Below are positions 8,786 through 30,601 of a DNA stretch of 38,938 nt, piece by piece. The position numbers were made by a program, and so were the translations under genes. Source of the DNA: Escherichia phage vB_EcoM-813R9; sequence record ON470620.1; one strand, 5' to 3'. Under the pieces are notes generated by a model that searched no databases, was not told the DNA's origin, and saw only the letters and a program-made list of their open reading frames with translations. How positions within the stretch are numbered: position 1 is the stretch's first letter; each line of letters starts with the position of its first letter.

Positions 8786-10045
8786 ATGTTTAGATTATCT
8801 AGTGTCAAGATTGAAGGTTTTTGGGGAAGACTAAATGCATCATGTTCATTTAATGAAGATGTAAATATTATTATTGGTCGAAATGGGACCGGTAAAACAA
8901 CCTTTATGAATATTCTTCACTCAGTTCTGGCATTAGAACTCGAATCACTAAATGAGAATAGTTTTGATAATGTAACAATAAAAATAAAAGAAGGAAGCAA
9001 AACTAAAACAATAAAAGTTGTGAGTAAATTTGACATAACTAAAGCTTTGCCTACGTTTGAATATACAATTTCTAGAAAGAAATATATTATCAGATCCTTT
9101 GAAGATCGTAGACTACCTATATATATGAGGAGAAAATATCAGGAAGACGTTGAAAAACTTAAGTTAGAGTTAGATAAATTAGTTGCTTTATCTTCTCTAT
9201 CAGTTTACCGACTTAGAAGCGGTGAAGATTTTGAAATCAGAGACAAATATGGCTCAAAATTAATCAACCCTGTTGATTACCGATTAGAACAATTATTGCA
9301 GAACCTAACAAAATATCAACTTTATTTATCACAAAGAGCTCGTGATGTTTCTGCAATATTACAGAAAGAGGTTCTTGCTTCTATTCTTTATAGTAAAGAA
9401 GATGGTATCGATGACACATTTAACTTTTCTTTTGATAAAGAAAAAGAACGTAGAAATTTAATAGCTGCATATTCTCAGCTTGGAGCTTTTGATAGTGATG
9501 TCAGAAAGAAGATTAACTTTCACGTTGAATCTATTGCCAAAACATTTGAAGAATTACGACTTGCAGAAAAAAATAACAGAAATATTTTAAATGTAGATTA
9601 CAGATCATTTGAGGCATTACGAAAGACGCAAAGAATTATAAAGATGTCTTTAAAATCCGAGGAGAAAATAAAAAACATATTTCTTCCTATAAATCTATTT
9701 TTAGAAACATTACATGAGTTCATAACCGATAAAAAATTTAATTTTATCTCCGGTGAGCTAGTAATAGAAAACGAGCATGGGCCGATTAGCCATAGTAATT
9801 TATCGTCTGGTGAAAAACAGCTATTAATTCTTTTTATTGAAACTTTGCTACAGCAAAACAAACCTTTCATCTATCTTACTGATGAACCAGAATTATCGCT
9901 ACATATTGCATGGCAACGAAAAATAATACCTGCAATCAAACAACTTAATCCTAATGCGCAAATTATCGCCGCTACGCATTCACCAGAAGTGGCTTCTAAA
10001 TATCGAAATGCAATCTTTGATATGGAGAAATTGGTTCATGGATGA
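8786..10045 (+). CDS. ariA: ABC/SMC-like ATPase (AAA15-type); candidate AriA of a PARIS-like defence module
   Basis: 419-aa ORF in AT-rich DNA; Walker A GRNGTGKTT, ABC signature LSSGEKQ, Walker B FIYLTDEPELSLH, H-loop ATHSPE; RBS aaagga. Confidence 0.6.
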   Translation: MFRLSSVKIEGFWGRLNASCSFNEDVNIIIGRNGTGKTTFMNILHSVLALELESLNENSFDNVTIKIKEGSKTKTIKVVSKFDITKALPTFEYTISRKKYIIRSFEDRRLPIYMRRKYQEDVEKLKLELDKLVALSSLSVYRLRSGEDFEIRDKYGSKLINPVDYRLEQLLQNLTKYQLYLSQRARDVSAILQKEVLASILYSKEDGIDDTFNFSFDKEKERRNLIAAYSQLGAFDSDVRKKINFHVESIAKTFEELRLAEKNNRNILNVDYRSFEALRKTQRIIKMSLKSEEKIKNIFLPINLFLETLHEFITDKKFNFISGELVIENEHGPISHSNLSSGEKQLLILFIETLLQQNKPFIYLTDEPELSLHIAWQRKIIPAIKQLNPNAQIIAATHSPEVASKYRNAIFDMEKLVHG

Positions 10046-10889
10046 TTTCCATTATTCTGCCGAAGCAGAAAATGTAATGAATTTATTTTACCAAGCTGAA
10101 GCCATGGTTTATGTTGAAGGCCCAGATGATATTTGCTTTTGGGAAATCATCTTTAATAAAGCTAGTTCATTAAAGGTTGAAATCAAAGATGTTGGCGGCT
10201 GTGAAGAATTAAAAAAATATATTGATAGAGTTACTGATGAAGATCTTCAAATTATAATTGCATGTGATGCAGACTTCACTACATTTGAAAATGAGGAAAA
10301 CGCTGATAGTCGCATTGTAAAAACTTATGGGCACTCCATCGAAAACACGTTTATTGACAAAACAGGCATATATAAGGCAATAAAAACTCTAGGAAAATTA
10401 CCTCAAAAGATAATGAACGATGTCAACGTCGATTCTTGGACAGAAGACTTTTATACCAAAATGGAACCCCTAATAAAACTTGATATATACAATCATATTT
10501 ATAGAAAAGGCATTTCAGTTATTGGTGACAGTGCAGATCGTTTCATGAAATCTAGAAAATCAAATGAAATTTGCGAGCAAAAAATCACGAGTTACAAAAA
10601 CACCATCATTGAAAAATTAGGTGTGGAACCAGATAACATCGATTCATCTTTCAAATCAAAATCGATAGAATACAGAAAGTGGCTTAGAGGTCATTTTCTT
10701 TTTTCTGCAGTACATAGGTACATTAGCACAACTGCAGAAAAAAATGGAAAAAAAGTATCCTTATCATATGAATCATTATATTCCAATTTAATGAATACAT
10801 TTGAATCCAATTTTACCAATACTCATATTGAGTTTAATCATTACCACGAAAAAATTAAAGCCATAAATATGCCACACGAAATGAAATAA
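10038..10889 (+). CDS. ariB: Toprim/DUF4435-like protein; candidate AriB effector of a PARIS-like module
   Basis: Start ATG overlaps the ariA stop (ATGGATGA); N-terminal VYVEGPDD with Glu27 and a downstream IIACDAD (DxD) motif as in Toprim/OLD-family nucleases; AT-rich. Confidence 0.55.
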   Translation: MDDFHYSAEAENVMNLFYQAEAMVYVEGPDDICFWEIIFNKASSLKVEIKDVGGCEELKKYIDRVTDEDLQIIIACDADFTTFENEENADSRIVKTYGHSIENTFIDKTGIYKAIKTLGKLPQKIMNDVNVDSWTEDFYTKMEPLIKLDIYNHIYRKGISVIGDSADRFMKSRKSNEICEQKITSYKNTIIEKLGVEPDNIDSSFKSKSIEYRKWLRGHFLFSAVHRYISTTAEKNGKKVSLSYESLYSNLMNTFESNFTNTHIEFNHYHEKIKAINMPHEMK

Positions 10890-10914
10890 GAAAAAATACA
10901 GATGTATTTTTATA

Positions 10915-11361
10915 TTATGTAGATAACCATTCAAATAGGGTATCCTTGATTTGATAATATTCTTTATCGTGGATACCCAATAGCTTACGCTCTGCGTAAC
11001 GGACCTCAGGTCCTTTGCGACTGACGCGATCACGCAGGCCGTAGTGATGAACGCGGGCAATGCGCTGCACCTTGCCTTCAAACTGCACGCTGGCAGAATC
11101 GGCGCTGGCGGCAGTTTTCAGGTATTTTGTGGTGCGCAGCTTCGCAAACATCTGACGTTTAATGCGGCCTTTTTTACTGCGTGCTGTTACCCGTCGCGGT
11201 TCATAGCTGCTGCCGTCAGGGTTGCGCTGCATCCTGATATTCTGCTGCTGTGTCCGGCGAAGTTCCTGCGCCAGTTGGCGCATCATACGGCTTCTTGCGG
11301 CTGGCTCCAGATTCGCCAGCAAGGCACTCAGCCAGTCGTCCACCTTCTGCAATTCAGCCAC
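10915..11361 (-). CDS. S: Tail completion protein S
   Basis: 148-aa ORF at the P2 gene S position after R; apparent GTG start; last ~25 codons lie in AT-rich DNA. Confidence 0.7.
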   Translation of the reverse strand: MAELQKVDDWLSALLANLEPAARSRMMRQLAQELRRTQQQNIRMQRNPDGSSYEPRRVTARSKKGRIKRQMFAKLRTTKYLKTAASADSASVQFEGKVQRIARVHHYGLRDRVSRKGPEVRYAERKLLGIHDKEYYQIKDTLFEWLST

Positions 11362-11785
11362 GTTTCACCGTCCACATTTCTTCAGGTTCATCGGGTTCCG
11401 CTACAGCTTCAACGCTGGACACTGTGCCGTCAGTGCTGACCAGCACACGTTCCGTCAGTTGCAGGTTAAGGCTGATATCACAGACATCGTTGCGCAGAAT
11501 ATCCACCTCAAAGGTGAATAACTTTTCCCGTAAAGCGGGATTATTGATGGCATCGGGCTGGTTATCACGCAGCCACAGCAAAACCGGGGCCATCAACAGA
11601 TTCTGGTCACCACTGAAATCCTCTATCACCACGTTCAGGGTGTAGCGGTACTCCCATGACATGGAGCTGGCCCCCGTGGCAACCAGCGAACCGTTATCCA
11701 CAAACAGATGCAGTTTGTCCGGGTTATTACGGACATAAGGCACTGCTTTATTAAGGGCGTGGCGCAGGGATTGTGGTTTGTTCAC
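11354..11785 (-). CDS. R: Tail completion protein R
   Basis: ORF 11354..11806 trimmed to a GTG start preceded by aggag; P2 gene R position. Confidence 0.7.
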   Translation of the reverse strand: MNKPQSLRHALNKAVPYVRNNPDKLHLFVDNGSLVATGASSMSWEYRYTLNVVIEDFSGDQNLLMAPVLLWLRDNQPDAINNPALREKLFTFEVDILRNDVCDISLNLQLTERVLVSTDGTVSSVEAVAEPDEPEEMWTVKRG

Positions 11786-16861: not shown

Positions 16862-18628
16862 ATGAACACCACACTGACACCCGCAGATCTCGATCCCCGT
16901 CGGCAGGCCATGCTGCTGTACTTTCAGGGATACCGCGTAGCCCGCATTGCTGAAATGCTGGGCGAGAAAGTTGCAACCGTTCACAGCTGGAAAAAACGCG
17001 ACAAGTGGGGTGACTATGGGCCGCTGGATCAGATGCAGCTCACCACCGCCGCACGCTACTGCCAGCTCATCATGAAGGAGCACAAAGAAGGGAAAGATTT
17101 CAAAGAGATTGACCTGCTGGCGCGCCAGTCGGAGCGCCACGCGCGGATCGGCAAGTTTAACAATGGCGGCAACGAAGCTGACTTAAACCCTAACGTCGCC
17201 AACCGCAACAAAGGCCCACGCCGTCAGCCTGAAAAGAATGTTTTCACCGATGAACAGATTGAGAAGCTGGAAGAAATTTTCCATTCCTCCATGTTCAACT
17301 ACCAGCGCCACTGGTGGGAAGCCGGAAAAACCAACCGCATCCGCAACCTGCTGAAGTCACGCCAGATCGGCGCGACCTTCTATTTTGCCCGTGAAGCCCT
17401 GATTGACGCCCTGCTTACCGGACGTAACCAGATTTTCCTTTCTGCCAGTAAGGCACAGGCCCACGTCTTTAAGCAGTACATCATCGACTTCGCCAAAGAA
17501 GTGGAGGTGGAGCTGAAAGGCGATCCGATGGTGCTTCCCAACGGGGCCACGCTTTACTTCCTCGGCACCAATGCCCGCACGGCCCAGAGTTACCACGGCA
17601 ACCTGTATCTGGATGAATATTTCTGGATACCGAAATTCCAGGAGCTGCGCAAAGTGGCTTCCGGTATGGCTATTCACAAAAAATGGCGACAAACCTATTT
17701 TTCCACGCCATCCAGCCTGACACACAGTGCTTATCCGTTCTGGTCCGGTGCGCTGTTCAACCGTGGGCGCAACAAAGCCGATAAGGTGGACATCGACCTG
17801 TCCCACAGCAATCTGGCCCCCGGCCTGCTGTGCGCAGACGGGCAATACCGCCAGATAGTCACCGTGGAAGATGCGGTGCGCGGCGGCTGTAACCTGTTCG
17901 ACCTTGACCAGTTGCGCATGGAGTACAGCCCGGACGAATACCAGAACCTGCTGATGTGCGAGTTTGTGGACGATCTCGCGTCCGTGTTCCCGCTCAGCGA
18001 GCTGCAGGCGTGCATGGTAGACAGCTGGGAAGTCTGGACTGACTTTCATGCACTGGCCCTGCGCCCGTTTGGCTGGCGCGAAGTATGGATCGGTTATGAC
18101 CCGGCGAAAGGTACGCAGAATGGCGACAGCGCCGGATGCGTGGTGGTGGCACCGCCAGCCGTGCCGGGCGGCAAGTTCCGCATTCTTGAGCGTCACCAGT
18201 GGCGCGGAATGGACTTTCGCGCCCAGGCTGACGCCATCAAAAAACTGACCGAACAGTACAACGTGACCTACATCGGCATCGACTCGACAGGTGTCGGCCA
18301 CGGGGTTTACGAGAACGTGAAAGCGTTTTTTCCAGCCGTCCGGGAGTTTGTCTACAACCCCAACGTTAAAAACGCCCTGGTACTCAAGGCCTACGACATT
18401 ATCAGTCACCGTCGTCTGGAGTTTGACGCCGGACACACCGACATAGCGCAGTCATTTATGGCAATCCGTCGCGCCACCACCGCCAGCGGCAACCGCCCAA
18501 CCTATGAAGCCAGCCGCAGCGAAGAAGCCAGCCATGCCGATCTGGCCTGGGCAACAATGCACGCACTGTTTAACGAACCGCTGCAGGGCGAATCCGCCAA
18601 TACCAGCAATATTGTGGAGATTTTTTGA
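16862..18628 (+). CDS. P: Terminase large (ATPase) subunit P
   Basis: 588-aa ORF P2 gpP-like; stop overlaps Q start (TGATG). Confidence 0.9.
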   Translation: MNTTLTPADLDPRRQAMLLYFQGYRVARIAEMLGEKVATVHSWKKRDKWGDYGPLDQMQLTTAARYCQLIMKEHKEGKDFKEIDLLARQSERHARIGKFNNGGNEADLNPNVANRNKGPRRQPEKNVFTDEQIEKLEEIFHSSMFNYQRHWWEAGKTNRIRNLLKSRQIGATFYFAREALIDALLTGRNQIFLSASKAQAHVFKQYIIDFAKEVEVELKGDPMVLPNGATLYFLGTNARTAQSYHGNLYLDEYFWIPKFQELRKVASGMAIHKKWRQTYFSTPSSLTHSAYPFWSGALFNRGRNKADKVDIDLSHSNLAPGLLCADGQYRQIVTVEDAVRGGCNLFDLDQLRMEYSPDEYQNLLMCEFVDDLASVFPLSELQACMVDSWEVWTDFHALALRPFGWREVWIGYDPAKGTQNGDSAGCVVVAPPAVPGGKFRILERHQWRGMDFRAQADAIKKLTEQYNVTYIGIDSTGVGHGVYENVKAFFPAVREFVYNPNVKNALVLKAYDIISHRRLEFDAGHTDIAQSFMAIRRATTASGNRPTYEASRSEEASHADLAWATMHALFNEPLQGESANTSNIVEIF

Positions 18629-19662
18629 TGGGAAAGAGTAAGAAGAACCGCGCTGCGGCGACGAAACAGATCCAGCTTAAAAGTCAAACTACAGCCGAAG
18701 CATTCAGCTTCGGCGATCCCGTTCCTGTTCTGGACCGCCGAGAACTGCTGGATTATGTGGAATGCGTACAGATGGACCGTTGGTATGAGCCGCCCGTCAG
18801 CTTTGACGGACTGGCGCGCACCTTCCGCGCTGCCGTGCATCACAGTTCCCCGATTGCAGTAAAGTGCAACATTCTGACCAGTACCTATATCCCTCACCCG
18901 CTGCTCAGCCAGCAGGCTTTTTCACGTTTTGTGCAGGACTACCTGGTATTTGGTAACGCCTACCTGGAGAAACGCACGAACCGCTTCGGTGAAGTTATCG
19001 CCCTTGAGCCTGCCCTGGCAAAATATACCCGACGCGGGTTAGACCTGGATACCTACTGGTTTGTGCAATACGGTATGACAACCCAGCCATATCAGTTCAC
19101 GAAAGGCAGCATTTTTCATCTGATGGAACCAGATATTAATCAGGAGATCTACGGCCTGCCCGGCTATCTTTCTGCCATCCCATCCGCTTTGCTCAACGAG
19201 TCCGCCACGCTGTTCCGCCGCAAATATTACATTAACGGTAGTCATGCAGGCTTCATCATGTACATGACCGATGCCGCGCAGAACCAGGAGGATGTGAACA
19301 ACCTCCGCAATGCGATGAAAAGCGCCAAAGGGCCGGGCAACTTCCGCAACTTGTTTATGTACTCACCCAACGGAAAGAAAGACGGGATTCAGATCATCCC
19401 GCTGTCAGAGGTGGCGGCAAAAGATGAGTTTCTTAACATCAAGAACGTGAGCCGGGATGACATGATGGCAGCGCACCGTGTACCGCCGCAGATGATGGGG
19501 ATTATGCCTAGTAATGTTGGCGGGTTTGGGGATGTTGAAAAGGCTAGTAAGGTTTTTGTCAGGAATGAGTTAATTCCGCTACAACACAGAATATCTGAAA
19601 TTAACTCATGGATTGGACTTAATGAAGAACTGGTTAAATTTACCTCATATGAATTAGATTAG
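18628..19662 (+). CDS. Q: Portal protein Q
   Basis: P2 gpQ-like (LDRRELLDYVEC, NESATLFRRKYY, GPGNFRNLF); ORF-track start 18625 is TTG, ATG at 18628; last ~40 codons AT-rich. Confidence 0.9.
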   Translation: MGKSKKNRAAATKQIQLKSQTTAEAFSFGDPVPVLDRRELLDYVECVQMDRWYEPPVSFDGLARTFRAAVHHSSPIAVKCNILTSTYIPHPLLSQQAFSRFVQDYLVFGNAYLEKRTNRFGEVIALEPALAKYTRRGLDLDTYWFVQYGMTTQPYQFTKGSIFHLMEPDINQEIYGLPGYLSAIPSALLNESATLFRRKYYINGSHAGFIMYMTDAAQNQEDVNNLRNAMKSAKGPGNFRNLFMYSPNGKKDGIQIIPLSEVAAKDEFLNIKNVSRDDMMAAHRVPPQMMGIMPSNVGGFGDVEKASKVFVRNELIPLQHRISEINSWIGLNEELVKFTSYELD

Positions 19663-19713
19663 GCATATAGAAATGCACCTAACATCGAAAGTGAGATTAG
19701 GTGCAAATAATAA

Positions 19714-20865
19714 TCAGCTTATTTGACCTAATAATTCTTCCGCATATTTTTTATCACTATCCATCCGTTGCTGAACAGCATCCCTAAGATGCTCTTTCAA
19801 CTTATCAGGATAATTTTTACATGCATCAATCAATTTTGTTCGTAAAAGCTTAGCACCATTTACAATGGTGGCATAAGCTAAAGCATCAGCTAACTCCTTA
19901 ACTTTCACATCATCAGTAATGATAGAAGGGATTGAAAAAACGTAATATTTCGCAACATAATTTTGCGTATACCAACTATCATATAACAATCCAATTAAAG
20001 CATCACCAAGATCACCTCTTCTTTTAAATTTGCTACCAAATGTATTACCCCATGTTCCTATAGCTCCTTTGGTCGCATCAGAATAGAAATCCAAATATCC
20101 TTTTTTGCACTCTTCGATGATTATATTTTCCATTCTAATTAAAACATCATCAGGAAGATTTCTCCATGCGCTCGGCTTAATTATTCTAAATACATTAGCA
20201 AACTCAACATTATTGCTAGCCTTGCGTAACTCATCACCTAGCAACCGCATTGCGGCTTTTTCTTCCTCTCCTGAAAAGCGTTGGTTTATTGCTTTGAATA
20301 TAGAATCAATTTCCTTGGTTGGCCTTTCATTAAAGCGAGAAATTAAACTTTGGAAAAAATCTAGTAGTTTTTTTTCTGGAATTTGTGATATTAAAGCTTC
20401 TGCATAATCAGAATTATTTACAAAGTGAACCTCATAAATTCTTTCAAGAATTGCTGTGTAATCGAACTCAGCAACATCTCTTTTTAAATACTTAATAAAA
20501 GTATCCAACATGATCAATATTCTCATGCAGGAATCTTCTGTATCAGGGAAATTGTCATGTGTCCTTGGATTTCTTATACACTGATAGTAGCCTCTTAATA
20601 GTGCTTCAAATCCGCGCTGTTCGTCCTGCTCTGATACAGATTGAAGACTATTAATTTGGATTCTAGGTGATTGTCCACCCAAAACAGTACCAACAAGCTG
20701 AGCCCCATCCCCTTCACATTGCCCTTTTTCACGCAGCAAAGTTGTTAGATATTTGGTTCCTGCAAGTATTGCATCCGAAAATTGGTTGTTTTCCAGCCTA
20801 TTACCAATCGCTTCAACTAATTCCGCATCGAAATTATTTGTATTAAAGTTATTTTTTACAAACAT
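19714..20865 (-). CDS. Accessory protein with N-terminal HEPN-like domain (TIGR02391/Hypoth_Ymh-type, Rx4H) and large uncharacterised C-terminal domain; candidate abortive-infection/defence effector
   Basis: 383 aa from the ATG after an aggggag RBS (ORF-track start is GTG at 20868); motif IRNPRTHD = R98-x4-H103 preceded by ..QRGFEALLRG..; AT-rich; occupies the Q-to-A accessory slot (old/tin position in P2). Confidence 0.6.
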   Translation of the reverse strand: MFVKNNFNTNNFDAELVEAIGNRLENNQFSDAILAGTKYLTTLLREKGQCEGDGAQLVGTVLGGQSPRIQINSLQSVSEQDEQRGFEALLRGYYQCIRNPRTHDNFPDTEDSCMRILIMLDTFIKYLKRDVAEFDYTAILERIYEVHFVNNSDYAEALISQIPEKKLLDFFQSLISRFNERPTKEIDSIFKAINQRFSGEEEKAAMRLLGDELRKASNNVEFANVFRIIKPSAWRNLPDDVLIRMENIIIEECKKGYLDFYSDATKGAIGTWGNTFGSKFKRRGDLGDALIGLLYDSWYTQNYVAKYYVFSIPSIITDDVKVKELADALAYATIVNGAKLLRTKLIDACKNYPDKLKEHLRDAVQQRMDSDKKYAEELLGQIS

Positions 20866-20950
20866 CACACTCCCCTTTTTTTGAAAGGGTATTGTATTGA
20901 ACCTTGTTAAGATTTCTCAGATAAGTATCACACTATCTCAAGTTGCGCGC

Positions 20951-20970
20951 GCTCGTATCCCCGCCACGCC
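20951..20970. other. Candidate cos (cohesive end) core
   Basis: Reverse complement reads ggcgtggcggggatacgagc, resembling the GC-rich 19-nt cohesive ends of P2/186-type phages (recalled, not aligned). Confidence 0.35.
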
Positions 20971-21019
20971 TGCCCGCTTTATGTAGTGGTTTTCATGCAC
21001 CTGCATGATCTACGCAAAA

Positions 21020-21039
21020 GCCCGCCAGTTCTGGCGGGC
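21020..21039 (-). terminator. Rho-independent terminator ending the early (A) operon
   Basis: Inverted repeat gcccgccag..ctggcgggc followed on the minus strand by a U-run (ttttgcgta). Confidence 0.5.
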
Positions 21040-21174
21040 CTTAGCAAAAACGATCCTCAAACGATCATGCGATCTCATGCGGCATAGACATGCACTACAG
21101 AGCTAACGCCTCGCAAGGGCTCGTTGTTCAACCTTGCTGACGCCAGAAGCAAGTTCAGACGCCAGCAACGTTTC

Positions 21175-21408
21175 TTAATGCAGCCAGCTGTCGTCTTCCC
21201 ACACCTTCTGCATAATTTTCATCACTTGTTTTCTTTCTTCGTCCAGTTGCAGTCCGGTTAGTTCCACACCGTTAGAGCTACCTTTGCGAATGCGAATTAC
21301 CGTTTTGGGATACAGGGGGCGCAGATTGCGGTAAAGCTCGGATTCAAGGGCGTCCAGGGTAGACTGGCTAATCTTCTGCTCTTTATCGATCATTATTTCA
21401 ATGCGCAT
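21175..21408 (-). CDS. DinI-family protein (Tum/antirepressor-like SOS module component)
   Basis: MRIEIMIDKEQ...ELTGLQLDEERKQVMKIMQKVWEDDSWL resembles E. coli DinI over its whole length; RBS gaggtg. Confidence 0.7.
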   Translation of the reverse strand: MRIEIMIDKEQKISQSTLDALESELYRNLRPLYPKTVIRIRKGSSNGVELTGLQLDEERKQVMKIMQKVWEDDSWLH

Positions 21409-21418
21409 AAAAGTCACC

Positions 21419-21607
21419 TCAGCTGATGACATCCATTGAGCGGTTGTATTCGTGGGTTCTGATTTTTGCCATGAGTTCATCAGTCAATTCAGAAACCCAC
21501 TGCAGAGCCAGCCCCTTCTCTTCATCACTACACTCACTAGCCGCTACAAGCTTAAGAAAAAAATCAATGCGCTGGAGCTTCAAAGACTCCAAAAAATAGT
21601 CCTGCAT
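21419..21607 (-). CDS. Hypothetical small protein, first gene of the LexA-box-controlled operon
   Basis: 62-aa ORF from an ATG with a strong aggagga RBS, directly downstream of a LexA box. Confidence 0.5.
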   Translation of the reverse strand: MQDYFLESLKLQRIDFFLKLVAASECSDEEKGLALQWVSELTDELMAKIRTHEYNRSMDVIS

Positions 21608-21650
21608 CTTTCCTCCTATGACACCACACGCAATACTGTACGCATAACCA

Positions 21651-21666
21651 CTGTTTATATTTACAG
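21651..21666. promoter_or_regulatory. LexA box (SOS operator)
   Basis: Perfect CTGT-N8-ACAG with AT-rich spacer (ctgtttatatttacag) upstream of the orf62/DinI-like operon. Confidence 0.6.
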
Positions 21667-21760
21667 TATATAATAATCTTACTGATGTAAAACGTTTTTT
21701 TACGTTCATCAGCCTGATATGCCTGGTATTATAAAGAGCACGAATTGTTAACCCGCGTAA

Positions 21761-24172
21761 TTAATACAGGTTCCGCCACTGATCATCTTCTTGCAAACGC
21801 TGGTTCCGATAGAAGATACGCAGGCCTGCTCCTGACGGAATACTGCCTCCGCGAAGGAGTAAATCGACCTCTTTCTCGCTGCCATCAAATCCTCTGGACT
21901 TCAGCTCATACACGAGCTGCAGTCGCTGATGGTCTGTAATTCGCTGTTTGTAGTCTTTACGCCGTTTCGGTTTCACCAGGCGTAACCTTGCAGCCAGTTC
22001 CCGGCGCTCTTTTTTGTTCATACTGTGCAGGTAATCGTGCAACTCCTTGTCATCCATGCTGGTAATGTCCGTTCTGGGGTCCCCATCAGCTGATTTATCT
22101 TTCTCCTGTTGGTTCAAATTTTCAGCAAGGGGACAGTTATTGCCACGAGTCCAAGGGGCGCAAGCGCCCTGGGCTGCCGCCTCCTGAACGTCAACGGCTT
22201 TACGAACCATTTTCCACTTCACTGCATGAGTGCAGATCTTGCCCTCTGCAATGGGTGACCAGATGCCATAAATACGAATGCCGTGATCGCCATAGGCGGT
22301 CGGCTCTTCGTTGATTTCATAAGCGGTTCTGATGAGGTGATATTTACGGGGAACCAGTACGCCGCCCTGCTTCATGATGTAGGTGGCAAAACAACCAGCA
22401 TCAGCAGCAGCCAGAATGGCATCAAGACGCGGGTTATCCAGTACCGGCGCACCTGCTTTTTTGTCACCCTGTTGCCTTGCCGCCTGACCAGCCAGCAAGC
22501 GAAGTTCACGGTAAGCCTGACGCCCCGGAATACCAAAGAAGCGGAATTGCTGAACACGATGCAGAGACGCCCAGGCATTCACGTATTCAGCGTTATCACG
22601 CAGAGATTTACCCGTTTCCTTGCTGATCTCGCCAGCCAGACCACGACCGTCAATGTTCTTACTGATATATTTCGCGATGTAGCTTGTCGGCGTTCCTTTG
22701 CGCGGGTTAATCAACTCAGACTTAAAGCGCGGCCCAGTGTTATTGCCCAGCTCCTCGCGGTCTTCACGGATGGCAAACTTACGCAGTAATGCAGTGATGG
22801 CACGGCGGTCTTTTTTGCGCATGAAACACAACAGGTGCCAGTGAACTGTGCCATCATGATGCGGCTCAGCCACCCGCACGCCATACCAGCGCAACCCGGC
22901 TTTGTGCATCGCCTTACGAAATGCAGCAAACATGCCGACCAGATAATCGCTGCTTTGTCTTACCGTCGCGTTTGTCCAGGTCGGGTTTGGTCTGCCGTTA
23001 TTTAGCGTGGAATGGAAACGCGACGGACAGGTGATAGTGTAGAAAACGGCGCAGTCACCGCGCATTTCCGCGATAAGCTCCAGACCTTTAACACAGGCCA
23101 TCATCTCATTGCGGCGATGCGCAGGGTTGCTGCTGCTGGCGTTTACCACATCCTCCATGTCCAGCGTGTCGCCGTCTTCGTTCACCAGTTCATGAGAACG
23201 GAAAAACTCCAGCGACTTACGGCGCTGCTCACGTTTATGCATCACGGCTTCATAGCTGACATAAGGAGATGCTTTTTTGCTGACCAGGCAAACAGCGCGC
23301 AACTGCTCTTCCCGCCATTCGCAACGCATCTTCCATAATTTCCGATACCACCAGTCGGCGCACAACATACGCGCCAGCGAACCCGGAATGAGTTCATAGG
23401 GCACGGGTTTACGGCGGTTTCTTTTCCGACGGAGTTGCTCAAACGCAGGTGGGATGACATCCAGACGCAGGGTTTCCGCTGCCACCTTTTCCCATGTCTT
23501 GCGGATTTCTTCTGGCTTAACGTCATCGGTGGCATACAAATCACCACAAGCTGCATCAAGGCACATACTCATATGCGCAGCTACCAGGGTGGACAGGCGT
23601 TTCACCTGATCCTGACTCATTTCAGGCAGGATCAGCAGGCCGTCCAGCCCTTCATGGCTTGCCATAAAGCGAAAAGATGCAGATAGCTGACTGTCGCGTA
23701 CATGCTCCAGTCGTTCCAGACATGGCTTAATCGTCTCACGTAAATAGCGGGAATAAGCCTTTGGCCTGCCCAGGCTGCTGAAGTATTCAATACGTTGCAT
23801 CAGCGGCTTGCTGATATTGGAAGGCTGGGCGTTGACGTCCGCCAGAATGACCATGTCTGAATTAAAACGCTGCTGCTCATGCGCCAGCTTTGCCCGGCTA
23901 ATGAGCTTATCCTGCTCCATTTCGCGCTGGACAGGATCACGTGATTCATTAAAGAAATAACGCTCCCAGACCTGATCACTCAGTGCCTCGCGGCGCAACT
24001 GTTCCTGCTCGTTATCGGCAGCGTACAGAGTGATCAGGTTTGAAAGCGTAGAAACCGGCGCAACTTCCGCCGGGTCCAGATAAGGGTTAATGGCCTTTTT
24101 CGGGCTGTTCCATGAGAATGCTGCGGCAGCCTCGTTAAAGCCGCAGCACTTGTTCATATCGGCATGACTCAT
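21761..24172 (-). CDS. A: Rolling-circle replication initiation protein A
   Basis: 803-aa ORF with HUH motif (TVHWHLLCF) and catalytic tyrosine region ([14 protein letters not shown]); P2/186 gene A position. Confidence 0.9.
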
Positions 24173-27172: not shown

Positions 27173-27769
27173 ATGTCAACATCAAAGTACCCAAGTGAGA
27201 TCAAAATAAATCCCAATAAAGGTGGTAAGGCTGCGATTGAGCGATTAGTCGAAGCCTATGGCTTTACGACACGACAGGCTTTAGCTGATCACTTGGAAGT
27301 ATCAAAAAGCACACTAGCGAACAGGTATTTGCGGGATACATTTCCTGCTGACTGGATAATCCAATGTGCTCTTGAAACAGGAACCTCCCTCAAATGGTTA
27401 ACTACCGGACAAGGCCTTAAGCAAAGCTCGCTGACAGCAGCTACAGAAGAGCTTGTTAAGTTTCGCCTTGCCGCAGGCAAAATGATTGAAGACGGTTCAT
27501 ATGTCTTCGATTCATCATTTCTTCCTGCAAACCTTTCATCACCAATTGTTGTTCAGGATGGACTCGTCACATACATTTGTGATCAAAAATTTTCTGAAGT
27601 ACTTGATGGAAACTGGTTAATCAATATCGACGGAACCTATTCCATTCGAAAAATCACAAGGCTTCCTAAAGGAATGATTAAAATTACAACAGCAGAGAAT
27701 AGCTTTGAATGTGCATTTTCTGATATTGAAGTGGTTGCTTGTATAAGAAGTACAATAGTCTCGAATTAA
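27173..27769 (+). CDS. cI: CI immunity repressor (phage 186 type)
   Basis: 198-aa ORF with shared motifs ..AYGF.., ..LANRY.., ..CALETG..L.WL.TG.G; transcribed toward int. Confidence 0.8.
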   Translation: MSTSKYPSEIKINPNKGGKAAIERLVEAYGFTTRQALADHLEVSKSTLANRYLRDTFPADWIIQCALETGTSLKWLTTGQGLKQSSLTAATEELVKFRLAAGKMIEDGSYVFDSSFLPANLSSPIVVQDGLVTYICDQKFSEVLDGNWLINIDGTYSIRKITRLPKGMIKITTAENSFECAFSDIEVVACIRSTIVSN

Positions 27770-27789: not shown

Positions 27790-29466
27790 ATGAATTCATT
27801 TGCCATCGTTATACTCTTATTAGCATTTCTCGCCCCTGTTCTAGCTGTAATATTATTTAAACAAAGTAAAAAACACAAAGCGGCTATAGATAACCTGACA
27901 GCTAACAACATAGCCCTTTCTAACCAACTGATTGAAAATCAAGAAAAACTAGCACAGACCGTACGAGAATTATCAGAGCTTGAAGGGCGAGCAGCACCAT
28001 TGTGGCAATACGAAGAATTGCACAGCGCAGTAATGGATGCAGAGAATAAGATAAAAAATGCGGACTCAATAGCCAAGCAAAAAATAGATGAAGCCCAAAT
28101 TAAGGCGGCTAAAACAGTAAACGAAGCAAATTATCAAGCTCAGATGACAATAAGCAACGCTAATAGCGAAGCTATAGCAATCACCAAAGACGCTCGCGAT
28201 GCACGCCTGAAAGCCAAAGAACGTCTTGATAATGCTAATAATAAAGCAAATGAGCTAATCTCAAATGCTAATGACAATGCAGTAAAAATTATTTCTGATG
28301 CAGAAGAAAGAGCAAAGGAGATTGCTGGTTCAGCATATGAAGCTAAAGAGTTTGCAGAAAAATATGAAGCAGTTGCAAAATCAATGAAAAATAAAATTGA
28401 AGGTTATGGTGATGAATGGATCATCCCTAACCGTAGTGTACTTGATGAGCTGGCAGAAAATTATGAATTTACAGATGCAGGCAAGGAATTACAAAAAGCC
28501 AGAGAGTTAACCAAATCATTAATAAAAACTAATAAAGCTGCTTCGTGTGATTATGTTGAGCAAAACAGGCGTAATACTGCCATAAACTTTGTTTTGGATG
28601 CCTTCAATGGAAGAGTTGACAGTATTTTATCAAAAGTCAAACACAACAATTTTGGAAAACTTTCCCAAGAAATAAAAGATGCATTTCAACTAGTAAATTA
28701 CAATGGCTCTGCCTTTAGGTCCGCAAAAATAAGTGACATCTATCTTCAGGCAAGACTCAACGAGCTAAAATGGGGTGTAGCAGTTAATGAAATTATGCTC
28801 GAAGAAAAAGAAGAGCAAAGAAGGATTAAAGAACAGCTTCGTGAAGAGGAAAGAGCTCGTAGAGAATATGAAAAAGCGATAAAAGAAGCTGAAAAAGAAG
28901 AAAAAGCTATTCAGCAAGCTATAAATAAAGCAACGAAAGAACTTATGCTTGCAAATGAAGAACAACGCTTAGCTTTAGAGCAAAAAATAGCTGAACTACA
29001 GTTAAAATATGAAGAAGCTGAAGCTAAAAATCAACGAGCTATTTCTATGGCTCAACAAACCAGATCAGGCCACGTCTATATCATTAGTAATATTGGTTCA
29101 TTTGGCGAAGATGTATATAAAATTGGAATGACACGCCGCCTTGAACCACTTGATCGTGTTCGTGAACTCGGAGATGCTAGTGTTCCTTTTTCGTTCGATG
29201 TTCATGCGATGATTTATAGTGATGATGCACCATCATTAGAAAACCATCTGCATAAAGTTTTCAACGAAAAGCAGGTCAATAAAATTAACTCACGAAAAGA
29301 GTTTTTTAACGTAAATTTAAAAGAAATCAAATCAGTTATTGAAGACATGAACATCAACGCCCACTGGACAATGTTTGCAGAGGCGAAAGAATATAGAGAG
29401 TCTCTATCTATTGAGCAGGAGCGCAAAGCAGCCACTTCCGCCAACGATGAACTACATGTTGCTTAG
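27790..29466 (+). CDS. Membrane-anchored coiled-coil protein with C-terminal GIY-YIG-like (T5orf172/MUG113-type) domain; candidate defence/superinfection-exclusion cargo
   Basis: 558 aa; N-terminal TM helix FAIVILLLAFLAPVLAVILF; long Ala/Lys/Glu-rich coiled-coil; C-terminal GHVYIISN..VYKIGMTRR..PFSF..ENHLH..REFF; AT-rich; RBS aaagga right after the cI stop. Confidence 0.65.
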   Translation: MNSFAIVILLLAFLAPVLAVILFKQSKKHKAAIDNLTANNIALSNQLIENQEKLAQTVRELSELEGRAAPLWQYEELHSAVMDAENKIKNADSIAKQKIDEAQIKAAKTVNEANYQAQMTISNANSEAIAITKDARDARLKAKERLDNANNKANELISNANDNAVKIISDAEERAKEIAGSAYEAKEFAEKYEAVAKSMKNKIEGYGDEWIIPNRSVLDELAENYEFTDAGKELQKARELTKSLIKTNKAASCDYVEQNRRNTAINFVLDAFNGRVDSILSKVKHNNFGKLSQEIKDAFQLVNYNGSAFRSAKISDIYLQARLNELKWGVAVNEIMLEEKEEQRRIKEQLREEERARREYEKAIKEAEKEEKAIQQAINKATKELMLANEEQRLALEQKIAELQLKYEEAEAKNQRAISMAQQTRSGHVYIISNIGSFGEDVYKIGMTRRLEPLDRVRELGDASVPFSFDVHAMIYSDDAPSLENHLHKVFNEKQVNKINSRKEFFNVNLKEIKSVIEDMNINAHWTMFAEAKEYRESLSIEQERKAATSANDELHVA

Positions 29467-29548: not shown

Positions 29549-30601
29549 ATGGCAGTACGAAAACTAACCACAGGGAAATGGCTTTGCGAATGTTACCCCG
29601 CCGGACGAAGTGGGCGTCGTGTGCGTAAACAATTCGCTACCAAAGGCGAAGCACTGGCTTTTGAGCGCCACACGATGGAAGAAACCGAAGCAAAGCCCTG
29701 GCTGGGTGAATCAGTGGATCGTCGAACACTGAAAGACGTGGTTGAGCTATGGTTCAAACTACATGGTAAATCTCTGACAGCTGGGCAGCATGTCTATGAC
29801 AAATTGCTGTTGATGGTTGACGCTCTGGGCAATCCTCTTGCAACCGATCTCACCTCTAAAATGTTTGCCCACTATCGAGATAAACGCCTGACAGGCGAGA
29901 TCTACTTCAGCGAGAAATGGAAGAAAGGAGCAAGCCCGGTCACCATTAACCTGGAGCAAAGCTATCTAAGTAGTGTTTTTAGCGAACTATCCCGTCTGGG
30001 CGAATGGTCGTATCCGAACCCACTGGAGAACATGCGAAAATTCACCATCGCAGAAAAAGAGATGGCATGGCTTACCCATGAGCAGATTGTTGAATTGCTG
30101 GCTGATTGCAAACGTCAGGACCCAATTCTGGCACTGGTAGTTAAGATATGCTTAAGCACAGGCGCACGCTGGCGTGAAGCCGTAAATCTTACCCGCTCAC
30201 AGGTGACCAAATACCGAATTACCTTTGTCAGAACGAAGGGGAAGAAAAACAGAAGCATCCCTATCAGTAAAGAGCTTTACGAAGAGATCATGGCGCTTGA
30301 TGGGTTCAATTTCTTCACAGACTGCTATTTTCAATTTTTATCCGTGATGGAAAAAACGTCTATCGTGCTCCCTCGCGGTCAACTCACACACGTTCTGCGC
30401 CATACGTTTGCGGCGCACTTCATGATGTCGGGTGGAAACATTCTGGCCTTACAAAAAATTCTCGGACACCACGATATAAAAATGACTATGCGTTACGCAC
30501 ATCTGGCACCGGATCATCTAGAAACGGCGCTCCGTTTCAATCCTCTGGCAACGCTGCCAAGTGGCGACAAAGTGGCGGCAGCGGTTGGCATTACCCCGTA
30601 A
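29549..30601 (+). CDS. int: Tyrosine integrase (P2/186 family)
   Basis: 350 aa; catalytic-domain motifs ..STGARWREA.., HVLRHTFAAHF, MRYAHLAPDHL; adjacent to the chromosome junction. Confidence 0.9.
   Translation: MAVRKLTTGKWLCECYPAGRSGRRVRKQFATKGEALAFERHTMEETEAKPWLGESVDRRTLKDVVELWFKLHGKSLTAGQHVYDKLLLMVDALGNPLATDLTSKMFAHYRDKRLTGEIYFSEKWKKGASPVTINLEQSYLSSVFSELSRLGEWSYPNPLENMRKFTIAEKEMAWLTHEQIVELLADCKRQDPILALVVKICLSTGARWREAVNLTRSQVTKYRITFVRTKGKKNRSIPISKELYEEIMALDGFNFFTDCYFQFLSVMEKTSIVLPRGQLTHVLRHTFAAHFMMSGGNILALQKILGHHDIKMTMRYAHLAPDHLETALRFNPLATLPSGDKVAAAVGITP

Follow-up and report, generated by a model that had tools for sequence, protein, structure and literature searches.

The AT-rich 3′ end of portal gene Q is linked to the adjoining cargo gene in the cos-proximal hotspot of a P2-like prophage

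Why should the last codons of a conserved portal gene be as AT-rich as the accessory gene that lies next to them? The question is raised by a P2-like (Peduoviridae) E. coli prophage, represented here by a stretch of 38,938 nucleotides (the window); its relatives are likewise classed as Peduoviridae. Profile matches place terminase, scaffold and capsid genes next to Q, and a single cargo gene with a HEPN domain faces Q from the opposite strand (Table 1). Two segments of the window, 19300-20950 and 10500-11700, were searched: both match strain EC11 at 100% identity, and the former matches strain CFT073 at 99.8%. In phage P2, a mere 167 nt separate the Q stop codon from cos, beyond which the accessory genes old and tin are found. 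Unlike these two genes, the cargo gene of the window is inserted between the Q stop codon and cos.

The variable locus is reportedly that first described in 2006 by Odegrip as the old/tin 'TO region'. The gpA-gpQ hotspot of P2-like phages is established, as are its position next to cos and the very rapid replacement of its content (Rousset 2022, PMC9122126; Moura de Sousa 2026, PMC13586616). The window shows the same locus, in effect in the same prophage (CFT073): the cargo lies between portal gene Q and replication gene A, it is adjacent to the cos packaging site, its content varies among close relatives (52 cargo clusters among 88 loci), and it is rapidly swapped between near-identical phages. 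The hotspot papers treat Q as a conserved flanking gene (PMC9122126, PMC13586616), whereas here its last ~24 codons are linked to the cargo.

Table 1. Coordinates of the features of the Q-cos interval and its surroundings in the window
Feature	Position	Strand	Remarks
Terminase P	16862-18628	+	
Portal gene Q	18628-19662	+	344 aa; PF04860 and TIGR01540 matches
Q body, conserved and GC-normal	18628-19527	+	GC 0.53, GC3 about 0.65; diversity 0.04-0.13 among 83 relatives
Transition zone, 20 codons GDVEKASKVFVRNELIPLQH	19528-19587	+	Amino acids conserved, synonymous sites AT-shifted; GC3 0.40
Cargo-linked Q tail allele RISEINSWIGLNEELVKFTSYELD and stop	19588-19662	+	GC 0.28, GC3 0.20
Recently exchanged tract	19315-20939	.	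1 mismatch in 1625 bp versus Kp4865-2 and two IMG/VR contigs
Hairpin between convergent Q and HEPN genes	19674-19705	.	Folding energy -17 kcal/mol, z = -3.6 on both strands
Hypoth_Ymh/TIGR02391 (HEPN) cargo gene	19714-20868	-	383-384 aa, GC 0.35; convergent with Q
Cargo upstream/promoter region	20869-20945	-	Last variable stretch; in 51 alleles diversity is about 0.72 (random) until 13 nt ahead of CCCCGCC
Conserved cos island, about 150 bp	20946-21095	.	Cohesive-end 19-mer CTCGTATCCCCGCCACGCC at about 20952-20970; aligns to P2 cos region
cos-like sequence	about 20952-20970		
DinI-like gene	21175-21480	-	
96-aa ORF	21419-21709	-	
Replication gene A	21761-24172	-	gpA matches PF05840 at 5.9e-128

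First, the composition of the Q 3′ end was examined. The original prediction, made from the letters of the window, held that the final ~40 codons of Q are AT-rich over 19530-19713 and that this DNA continues into the convergent HEPN-like gene. Both statements are accurate: GC content over 19530-19713 is 0.332, as compared to 0.528 in the preceding part of Q (18628-19529) and 0.351 in the HEPN gene. A two-segment maximum-likelihood fit over 18628-20868 placed the change point at 19532 (2-lnL support 19490-19570), with GC falling there from 0.53 to 0.35. Across the 38.9-kb window, only 7% of all 184-nt windows are equally AT-rich. Measured per 20 codons, GC3 decreases from 0.55-0.80 to 0.40 over 19528-19587 and to 0.20 over 19588-19662. 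When 55 Q alleles were pooled, GC fell at the same place, from 0.53 through 0.43 and 0.39 to 0.28, and the drop was missing in relatives with an empty Q-cos interval. Because it recurs at one place in 55 independent alleles and is absent where the interval is empty, the GC drop is no chance fluctuation.

Averaged over the 55 alleles, the body has a GC3 of 0.66; the value is 0.61 for the 40 codons that precede the motif, 0.42 for the 20-codon transition zone and 0.33 for the tail. The codons of the transition zone are still alignable with those of relatives having other cargo. Their GC3 correlates with the GC of the tail (rho 0.54, p 2e-5) whereas GC3 further upstream does not. The divergence of the tail from the consensus rises with its AT content (rho 0.59), and tail GC is correlated with cargo GC (rho 0.48, p 2e-4). 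Between the two convergent genes, the hairpin has a U-rich tail on the - strand only and is therefore likely to be a terminator for the HEPN transcript; it was not called by a simple terminator scan.

The cargo itself is a candidate HEPN defence nuclease encoded by a single gene. Its N-terminal ~125 residues correspond to Hypoth_Ymh (HEPN), with matches to PF09509 (82.4 bits for a cut-off of 25, 2.9e-23) and to TIGR02391 (44.8 bits for a cut-off of 39.45); in profile searches the remaining ~250 residues matched nothing. The Rx4-6H catalytic motif is present as RNPRTH (Rx4H; R99-N-P-R-T-H104) and is invariant in 21 homologues down to 34% identity. Full-length homologues with about 50% identity occur under the source-database names Vibrio, Marinomonas, Aeromonas, Sulfurovum and Desulfovibrio, and a scan of species-representative genomes gave no match to the HEPN protein. 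In Aeromonas lambdoid-type prophages the homologues occupy a variable accessory-gene position, where the HEPN gene has a GC content of 0.36 between flanks of 0.49-0.56. Another homologue adjoins SIR2-HerA-like genes in a metagenomic defence island.

An identical protein was catalogued as system #31, 'Hypoth_Ymh', a 'putative nuclease' with 118 occurrences (Rousset 2022 Table S5B, PMC9122126), and CFT073 (NC_004431) is the first row of Table S5A, where it is listed with Hypoth_Ymh (PMC9122126). No report of an activity of this cargo was found in the tables of Rousset 2022 or in the literature searched. The 'putative HEPN' system pFR103 tested in that study (PMC9122126) is a different protein from the cargo of the window. 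Membership of the PD-Lambda-3 system was also considered and rejected: residues 9-126 of the cargo match only positions 138-258 of the 270 of the PD-Lambda-3_B profile, and the partner gene of this two-gene system is missing, the cargo being alone between Q and cos.

In order to follow the Q 3′ end among relatives, we used 80 IMG/VR loci with a Q gene 92-100% identical to that of the window, together with annotated phages; 88 loci could be scored. Already among the annotated relatives, the C-terminus of Q differs from one relative to the next beyond a conserved ...VFVRNELxPLQ. The gene downstream of Q encodes a DUF4145 protein in Cartapus, an AIPR abortive-infection protein in ST11-VIM1phi8.4, a reverse transcriptase in 4LV2017 and a TIR protein in both ST15-OXA48phi14.1 and 500465-1. 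Overall, the 88 loci (Q at least 92% identical) fell into 55 tail clusters and 52 downstream-cargo clusters, and the two partitions agreed with an adjusted Rand index of 0.93. The same cargo was shared by 52 of the 53 same-tail pairs, pair counts that are not independent events as the IMG/VR and RefSeq samples include related prophages. Aligning the Q 3′ regions of P2-like relatives, as the original prediction had proposed, thus showed the tail tracking the cargo.

Relatedness of the prophages is an insufficient reason for this agreement. Over the Q body (18700-19300), same-tail pairs are 0.948 identical and different-tail pairs 0.942. Because these values are equal, the linkage of tail and cargo does not reflect clonal relatedness. 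Towards the tail, identity climbs from 0.948 to 0.97 and 0.988 in same-tail pairs and drops from 0.942 to 0.905 and 0.788 in different-tail pairs. The body-identity control and a second sample with one genome per species lessen the problem of related prophages without removing it. In two pairs of loci (L008/L025 and L016/L036), the bodies are 100% identical while tails and cargo are unrelated; homology is lost 70-79 nt before the Q stop codon and comes back 12-14 nt before the CCCCGCC core of cos. Seven pairs were scored as having the same cargo and different tails. In these, the cargo itself is only 71-85% identical, and tail and cargo have diverged in parallel. The flank allele is tied to the locus allele independently of the background, as in a hitchhiking flank. 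Taken together, the alignments show that the last ~24 codons of Q behave as an allele inherited and diverging with the cargo, across phage backbones and host genera, and that the upstream Q body, as judged from the same alignments, is exchanged freely.

The tail allele of the window itself, HRISEINSWIGLNEELVKFTSYELD, is alone among the sampled alleles in having an insertion of two residues. It occurs in seven loci (the window, L004, L010, L011, L173, L174 and L175), and the HEPN gene adjoins it in all seven. In the loci examined, this tail was never found with other cargo or without cargo, either of which would have spoken against the original prediction. One of these loci is Klebsiella phage Kp4865-2 (L004), and four IMG/VR contigs carrying both the tail and the HEPN gene were recovered in an exact-match search with a 49-nt stretch of the tail. 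In a Klebsiella prophage (L175), a slightly diverged tail, HRISEINSWIGLDEELIKFTSYDLD, accompanies a 92%-identical HEPN protein on a backbone that is only 76-83% identical. Elsewhere the cargo is far from universal, being present in only 51 of 476 matching E. coli genomes.

Mismatch maps of these occurrences delineated the recently exchanged tract: 3-15 mismatches per 100 nt were counted in its flanks as compared to 0 inside. On the left, the joint with Kp4865-2 is at 19303-19315 and that with L010 at 18754-19088. These two positions place the recent crossovers in GC-normal Q, upstream of the AT-rich part, which is carried along. Exchange of cargo by recombination within the end of Q, as originally predicted, is thus supported (adjusted Rand index 0.93), with the refinement that the recent crossovers lie upstream of the AT-rich part. 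On the right, the joint with Kp4865-2 is inside cos (20941-20975), and right joints with L004, L011, L173 and L010 are at 20941-20980. With L174 as comparator, the right joint is at about 22170, in gene A and not in cos. Chi sites were considered as a cause of crossovers clustering near Q and rejected: there is none near Q, and the only two in the whole window are both distant and no more than expected by chance.

A variable tail could also be a property of Q itself. If the Q C-terminus were simply unconstrained, fast-evolving and drifting towards AT irrespective of what lies downstream, one would expect a high pN/pS in the tail as compared to the body (0.23 versus 0.02), a variable length and a position outside the Pfam portal match, all of which are observed. 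Loci with an empty site contradict this explanation. In the first sample, only one locus, L027, is empty in the manner of P2, with 168 nt separating the Q stop codon from cos; its tail GC of 0.49 is the highest of all. Of 80 P2-clade loci, 79 could be scored; in 77 of these, Q and cos are separated by an empty interval of about 175 nt. The tails are near-invariant with a GC of 0.51-0.52. Of 1641 complete E. coli genomes with a match, 1536 (94%) have the Q tail, spacer and cos of the P2 type in a single contiguous match. Furthermore, Enterobacter, Citrobacter and Pantoea species with empty sites have an identical tail. Intrinsic hypervariability is highly improbable in view of these conserved, GC-normal tails.

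Similar results were obtained with the species-level sample, made up of one genome per species (80 loci, Escherichia to Pseudomonas). Tail-minus-body GC correlated with downstream-minus-body GC (rho 0.82, p 3e-19). Its median was +0.02 at empty loci (n=10) versus -0.18 at cargo-bearing loci (n=49; p 3e-5). Tail amino-acid identity was 0.84 at empty loci versus 0.545 at cargo-bearing loci for a matched body identity of about 0.92. The effect on the flank is therefore absent when the locus is empty. Because tails at empty sites are conserved with normal GC, the Q tail is not intrinsically hypervariable; in the loci compared, it is variable and AT-rich only beside cargo.

What kind of sequence is the tail beside cargo? 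All 55 tails are homologous. They share the consensus KRLxELNxWLxxExIxFxxYxL, in which N, W, F and Y are near-invariant, and their length varies from 20 to 28 residues after PLQ-x. A sequence search of Q against solved structures returned nothing significant; a patterned, non-significant match at E = 1.3 was to an HK97-family portal (PDB 6TE8/6TBA) aligned to Q 254-328. The shared pattern contradicts the idea that insertion of cargo overwrote the end of Q with non-homologous DNA, which the abrupt change of composition and the loss of homology at a constant distance of about 73 nt from the stop codon might have suggested. Targeted mutation of the tail by a diversity-generating retroelement is no better placed: the cassette of the window has no reverse transcriptase, and the window contains no template-like repeat of the tail, no repeat of 19500-19713 being longer than 11 nt. 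The retroelement target was rejected on these grounds, and overwriting or targeted hypermutation, taken as one explanation, is extremely improbable.

For pairs sharing their cargo, pN/pS reaches 0.23 in the tail, as compared to 0.05 in the preceding 20 codons and 0.02 further upstream. These values point to relaxed purifying selection on the tail, with no sign of positive selection, and they bear on a functional reading of the linkage. Portals are known triggers of some defence systems. The portal C-terminus might then be sensed by defence or have to suit the neighbouring cargo, and diversifying selection could have produced a tail-cargo linkage that is almost perfect. The pN/pS of the tail argues against this, as do two features of the change: it is no weaker at synonymous sites (GC3 0.20-0.33), and it reaches amino-acid-invariant codons. 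Moreover, the same pattern is seen beside unrelated cargo (reverse transcriptase, TIR, AIPR, DUF4145 and HEPN) and at the 3′ end of the unrelated gene S beside another cargo island, and physical adjacency explains enough. Functional matching is very unlikely in this light. The proposal that the portal tail is a matched partner of the cargo, either as a self-marker preventing the prophage's portal from setting off its own defence gene or because its surface is selected to escape immunity that senses portals, is very unlikely as well; if it were true, cassette and tail would have to move jointly for functional reasons.

We then located the borders of the variable segment. Across 83 distinct Q sequences, diversity is about 0.05 in mid-gene, 0.12 at 19391-19540, 0.28 at 19541-19570 and 0.36 at 19571-19600, and it reaches the random level of about 0.63 past the Q stop codon. 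Diversity thus decays with distance from the locus. The synonymous AT shift reaches about 60 nt upstream of the end of allele homology, itself 70-79 nt before the stop codon. The left border is graded, with a composition edge at about 19532, an allele-specific edge at about 19588 and recombination joints further upstream. The AT-rich end of Q had been proposed to delimit the left edge of the island; it does form the left flank of the cassette, with the refinement that this edge is graded and not single.

The right border looks different. Among 51 alleles, diversity drops at 20945/6, where about 4 nt suffice to bring it from 0.72 to 0; this point is 6 nt before the cohesive-end 19-mer. Diversity stays near 0 over 20946-21095 and then returns to the random level in a second variable sub-locus on the A side. 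A promoter-like site is located at 20920-20891 on the - strand, in the upstream region of the cargo. By this diversity profile, the hotspot consists of two sub-loci split by the 150-bp cos island. The cassette is therefore located at the very end of the packaged linear chromosome. The sharp right border would fit cos as one of the exchange joints. Linkage combined with differing constraint would give both a graded border in a coding gene and a sharp border at a DNA-level site.

The AT-richness has a further possible source. The tail, the AT-shifted codons and the cargo may have been imported together from P2-like phages of lower-GC hosts, a possible but somewhat doubtful origin; their composition would then go back to that ancestry and not to decay in place. 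This origin bears on nothing but the cause of the AT-richness and does not conflict with the linkage model. Such a donor would leave tail GC following cargo GC (rho 0.48, or 0.82 when both are taken relative to the body) and an AT shift at synonymous sites extending to amino-acid-conserved codons, as observed, and the HEPN family does occur in organisms with low-GC flanks (L179-L182, 0.37-0.40). However, no low-GC Q body with such tails was present among the 80 species-level loci, where all body GC values are at least 0.49. The HEPN gene has a GC of 0.36 in Aeromonas prophages too, so that the cargo is GC-poor whatever its surroundings. Finally, the gradients of divergence and GC are smooth and do not form one sharp foreign junction.

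Overall, the explanation that we favour, and consider very probable, is that the last ~43 codons of Q, which are AT-rich, form the left flank of a terminal cassette that can be replaced, and hitchhike with the cargo in the cos-proximal hotspot. As delimited by the alignments, the cassette would extend from about 75 nt before the Q stop codon, through the cargo, to 6 nt before the cohesive-end sequence. It would be swapped by homologous recombination, with one crossover anywhere in the conserved Q body and the other joint at or in the cos island of about 150 bp, or further to the right. Cutting and annealing of the cohesive ends may supply the cos joint for free. We infer recombination from the sequence mosaics, and the case for a role of the cos ends in the exchange is circumstantial.

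Protein constraint on the Q tail is about ten-fold weaker than on the body, and the tail adjoins non-homologous DNA; in this model, recombination could therefore not part it from the cargo, and it would hitchhike. Long-lived cargo alleles are probably maintained by frequency-dependent selection on defence, during which the tail and the nearby synonymous sites would have drifted to a cargo-like low GC. Hitchhiking alone does not predict low GC: the synonymous shift needs an additional mutational or recombinational bias or a low-GC ancestry. The low GC could result either from AT-biased mutation in the absence of homogenising recombination or from a history in lower-GC P2-like phages.

The hotspot and its HEPN cargo are already catalogued, and flank hitchhiking and in-gene mosaic junctions are well known. 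In E. coli, gnd lies beside the O-antigen rfb cluster and is a core-gene flank that hitchhikes with a hypervariable locus. The Q tail resembles it in that the diversity of a conserved gene is raised near a diversity-selected neighbour and decays with distance, and in that flank alleles cross lineages with the neighbour. It differs in that the effect covers tens of nucleotides and not kilobases, concerns only the weakly constrained 3′ end and comes with a strong AT shift. Mosaic junctions of temperate phages arise by homologous recombination in conserved genes flanking non-homologous modules. Here too, a non-homologous module is exchanged via flanking homology, and such junctions are sometimes inside genes; the difference is that at least 55 alleles have one junction in common here, the second one coinciding with the packaging site. 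In phage lambda, a cut cos site stimulates recombination. The likeness is that the exchanged tract ends at cos on one side (20941-20975), whereas for P2 such stimulation is not demonstrated, there is no Chi nearby, and the right joint with one comparator is in gene A.

A role of the cos ends in P2/P4 cargo exchange was raised as a speculation by Rousset 2022 (PMC9122126), and defence genes have been reported to show almost no linkage with core genes at whole-gene resolution (Spearman at most 0.2; PMC13586616). This near absence of linkage (PMC13586616) contrasts with the near-complete sub-gene linkage observed here. In the literature searched, there was no mention of the Q tail being linked to cargo at sub-gene scale, of two sub-loci or of asymmetric borders.

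A PARIS-like island adjoins gene S, whose 3′ end displays the same pattern, in agreement with the comparison of Q to S in the original prediction. The pattern may therefore be more general for convergent core genes flanking phage cargo.

What these data add is the anatomy of the exchange unit: it includes ~24 portal codons, its border on the portal side is graded, as determined by homology and protein constraint, and its border at cos is razor-sharp. Whole-gene measures of linkage miss such tight sub-gene linkage, and automated delimitation of the hotspot at gene boundaries is off by about 75-130 nt. Portal-tail alleles might serve as a short tag of cargo type in fragmentary assemblies. The anatomy of the cassette provides testable support for the published speculation that cos ends together with one homologous crossover drive the swapping of defence genes.

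The cos region (20946-21095), which contains the packaging site, forms an island of 150 bp with a diversity near zero, whereas both flanks are at random level. Therefore, the published gpA-gpQ hotspot of defence cargo consists of two sub-loci split by cos. On the Q (portal gene) side of the cohesive-end sequence, conservation is limited to about 6 nt. On the far side of the island, a variable stretch extends over about 21096-21176; Klebsiella phage Kp4865-2 is longer than the window by about 760 nt between window positions 21093 and 21177.

A second AT-rich island is flanked by the baseplate gene V and the tail gene S (see table). It carries an AAA_15/AAA_21 ATPase and a DUF4435 protein, a pair which we take to resemble the PARIS defence system. 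At the 3′ end of S, homology to other E. coli prophages starts 52-110 nt inside the gene, and the S end of the window is found together with the cargo in only 18 of the 1032 matching genomes. The S island repeats the pattern seen at Q, with the coding tail travelling with the cargo. A third cargo site is probably represented by the 558-aa DUF4041 gene, which is part of an AT-rich stretch between the CI-type repressor and the integrase.

Coordinates of features in and around the cargo regions
Feature	Position	Strand
AAA_15/AAA_21 ATPase + DUF4435 protein	8786-10889	+
Tail gene S	10915-11361	-
DinI-like ORF (101 aa as listed)	21175-21480	-
96-aa ORF, upstream of DinI-like ORF	21419-21709	-
CI-type repressor	27173-27769	
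DUF4041 + T5orf172/MUG113 protein (558 aa)	27790-29466	+
Integrase	29549-30601	

In the DinI-like ORF, the DinI domain is confined to residues 38-100, and 62 nt are shared with the upstream ORF. Because DinI proteins are annotated as 77 aa in relatives, the real start codon is probably internal.

Homologues of the HEPN cargo, the gene located between Q and cos, were found in comparator loci L176-L178 and L179-L182 with about 52-53% identity. In Aeromonas lambdoid-type prophages, the homologue adjoins NinB, Rha and Cro-like genes; its neighbours on metagenomic contigs are SIR2-HerA-like, SMEK_N and DUF2326 genes. Even in the Aeromonas prophages, where the flanks have a GC content of 0.49-0.56, the HEPN gene is AT-rich, with a GC content of 0.36.

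Two further assemblies contain P2-like Q genes: one carries the label 'Bacillota bacterium' (4.5-kb contig, 92% identity), the other 'Chryseobacterium sp.' (65% identity). Contamination or mis-binning of contigs probably accounts for both. The window differs from all comparators at position 20940 and from four of five at position 19434, within an otherwise identical tract; at both sites, the window appears to carry a private SNP.

Finally, the standard P2 tail (…SLDTDNG) is retained in one P2-clade locus (among L091-L170) in which 1446 nt nevertheless separate the Q stop from cos. This interval could correspond to a recent insertion 3′ of an unaltered tail. If so, this locus would be informative on the first origin of the cassettes.
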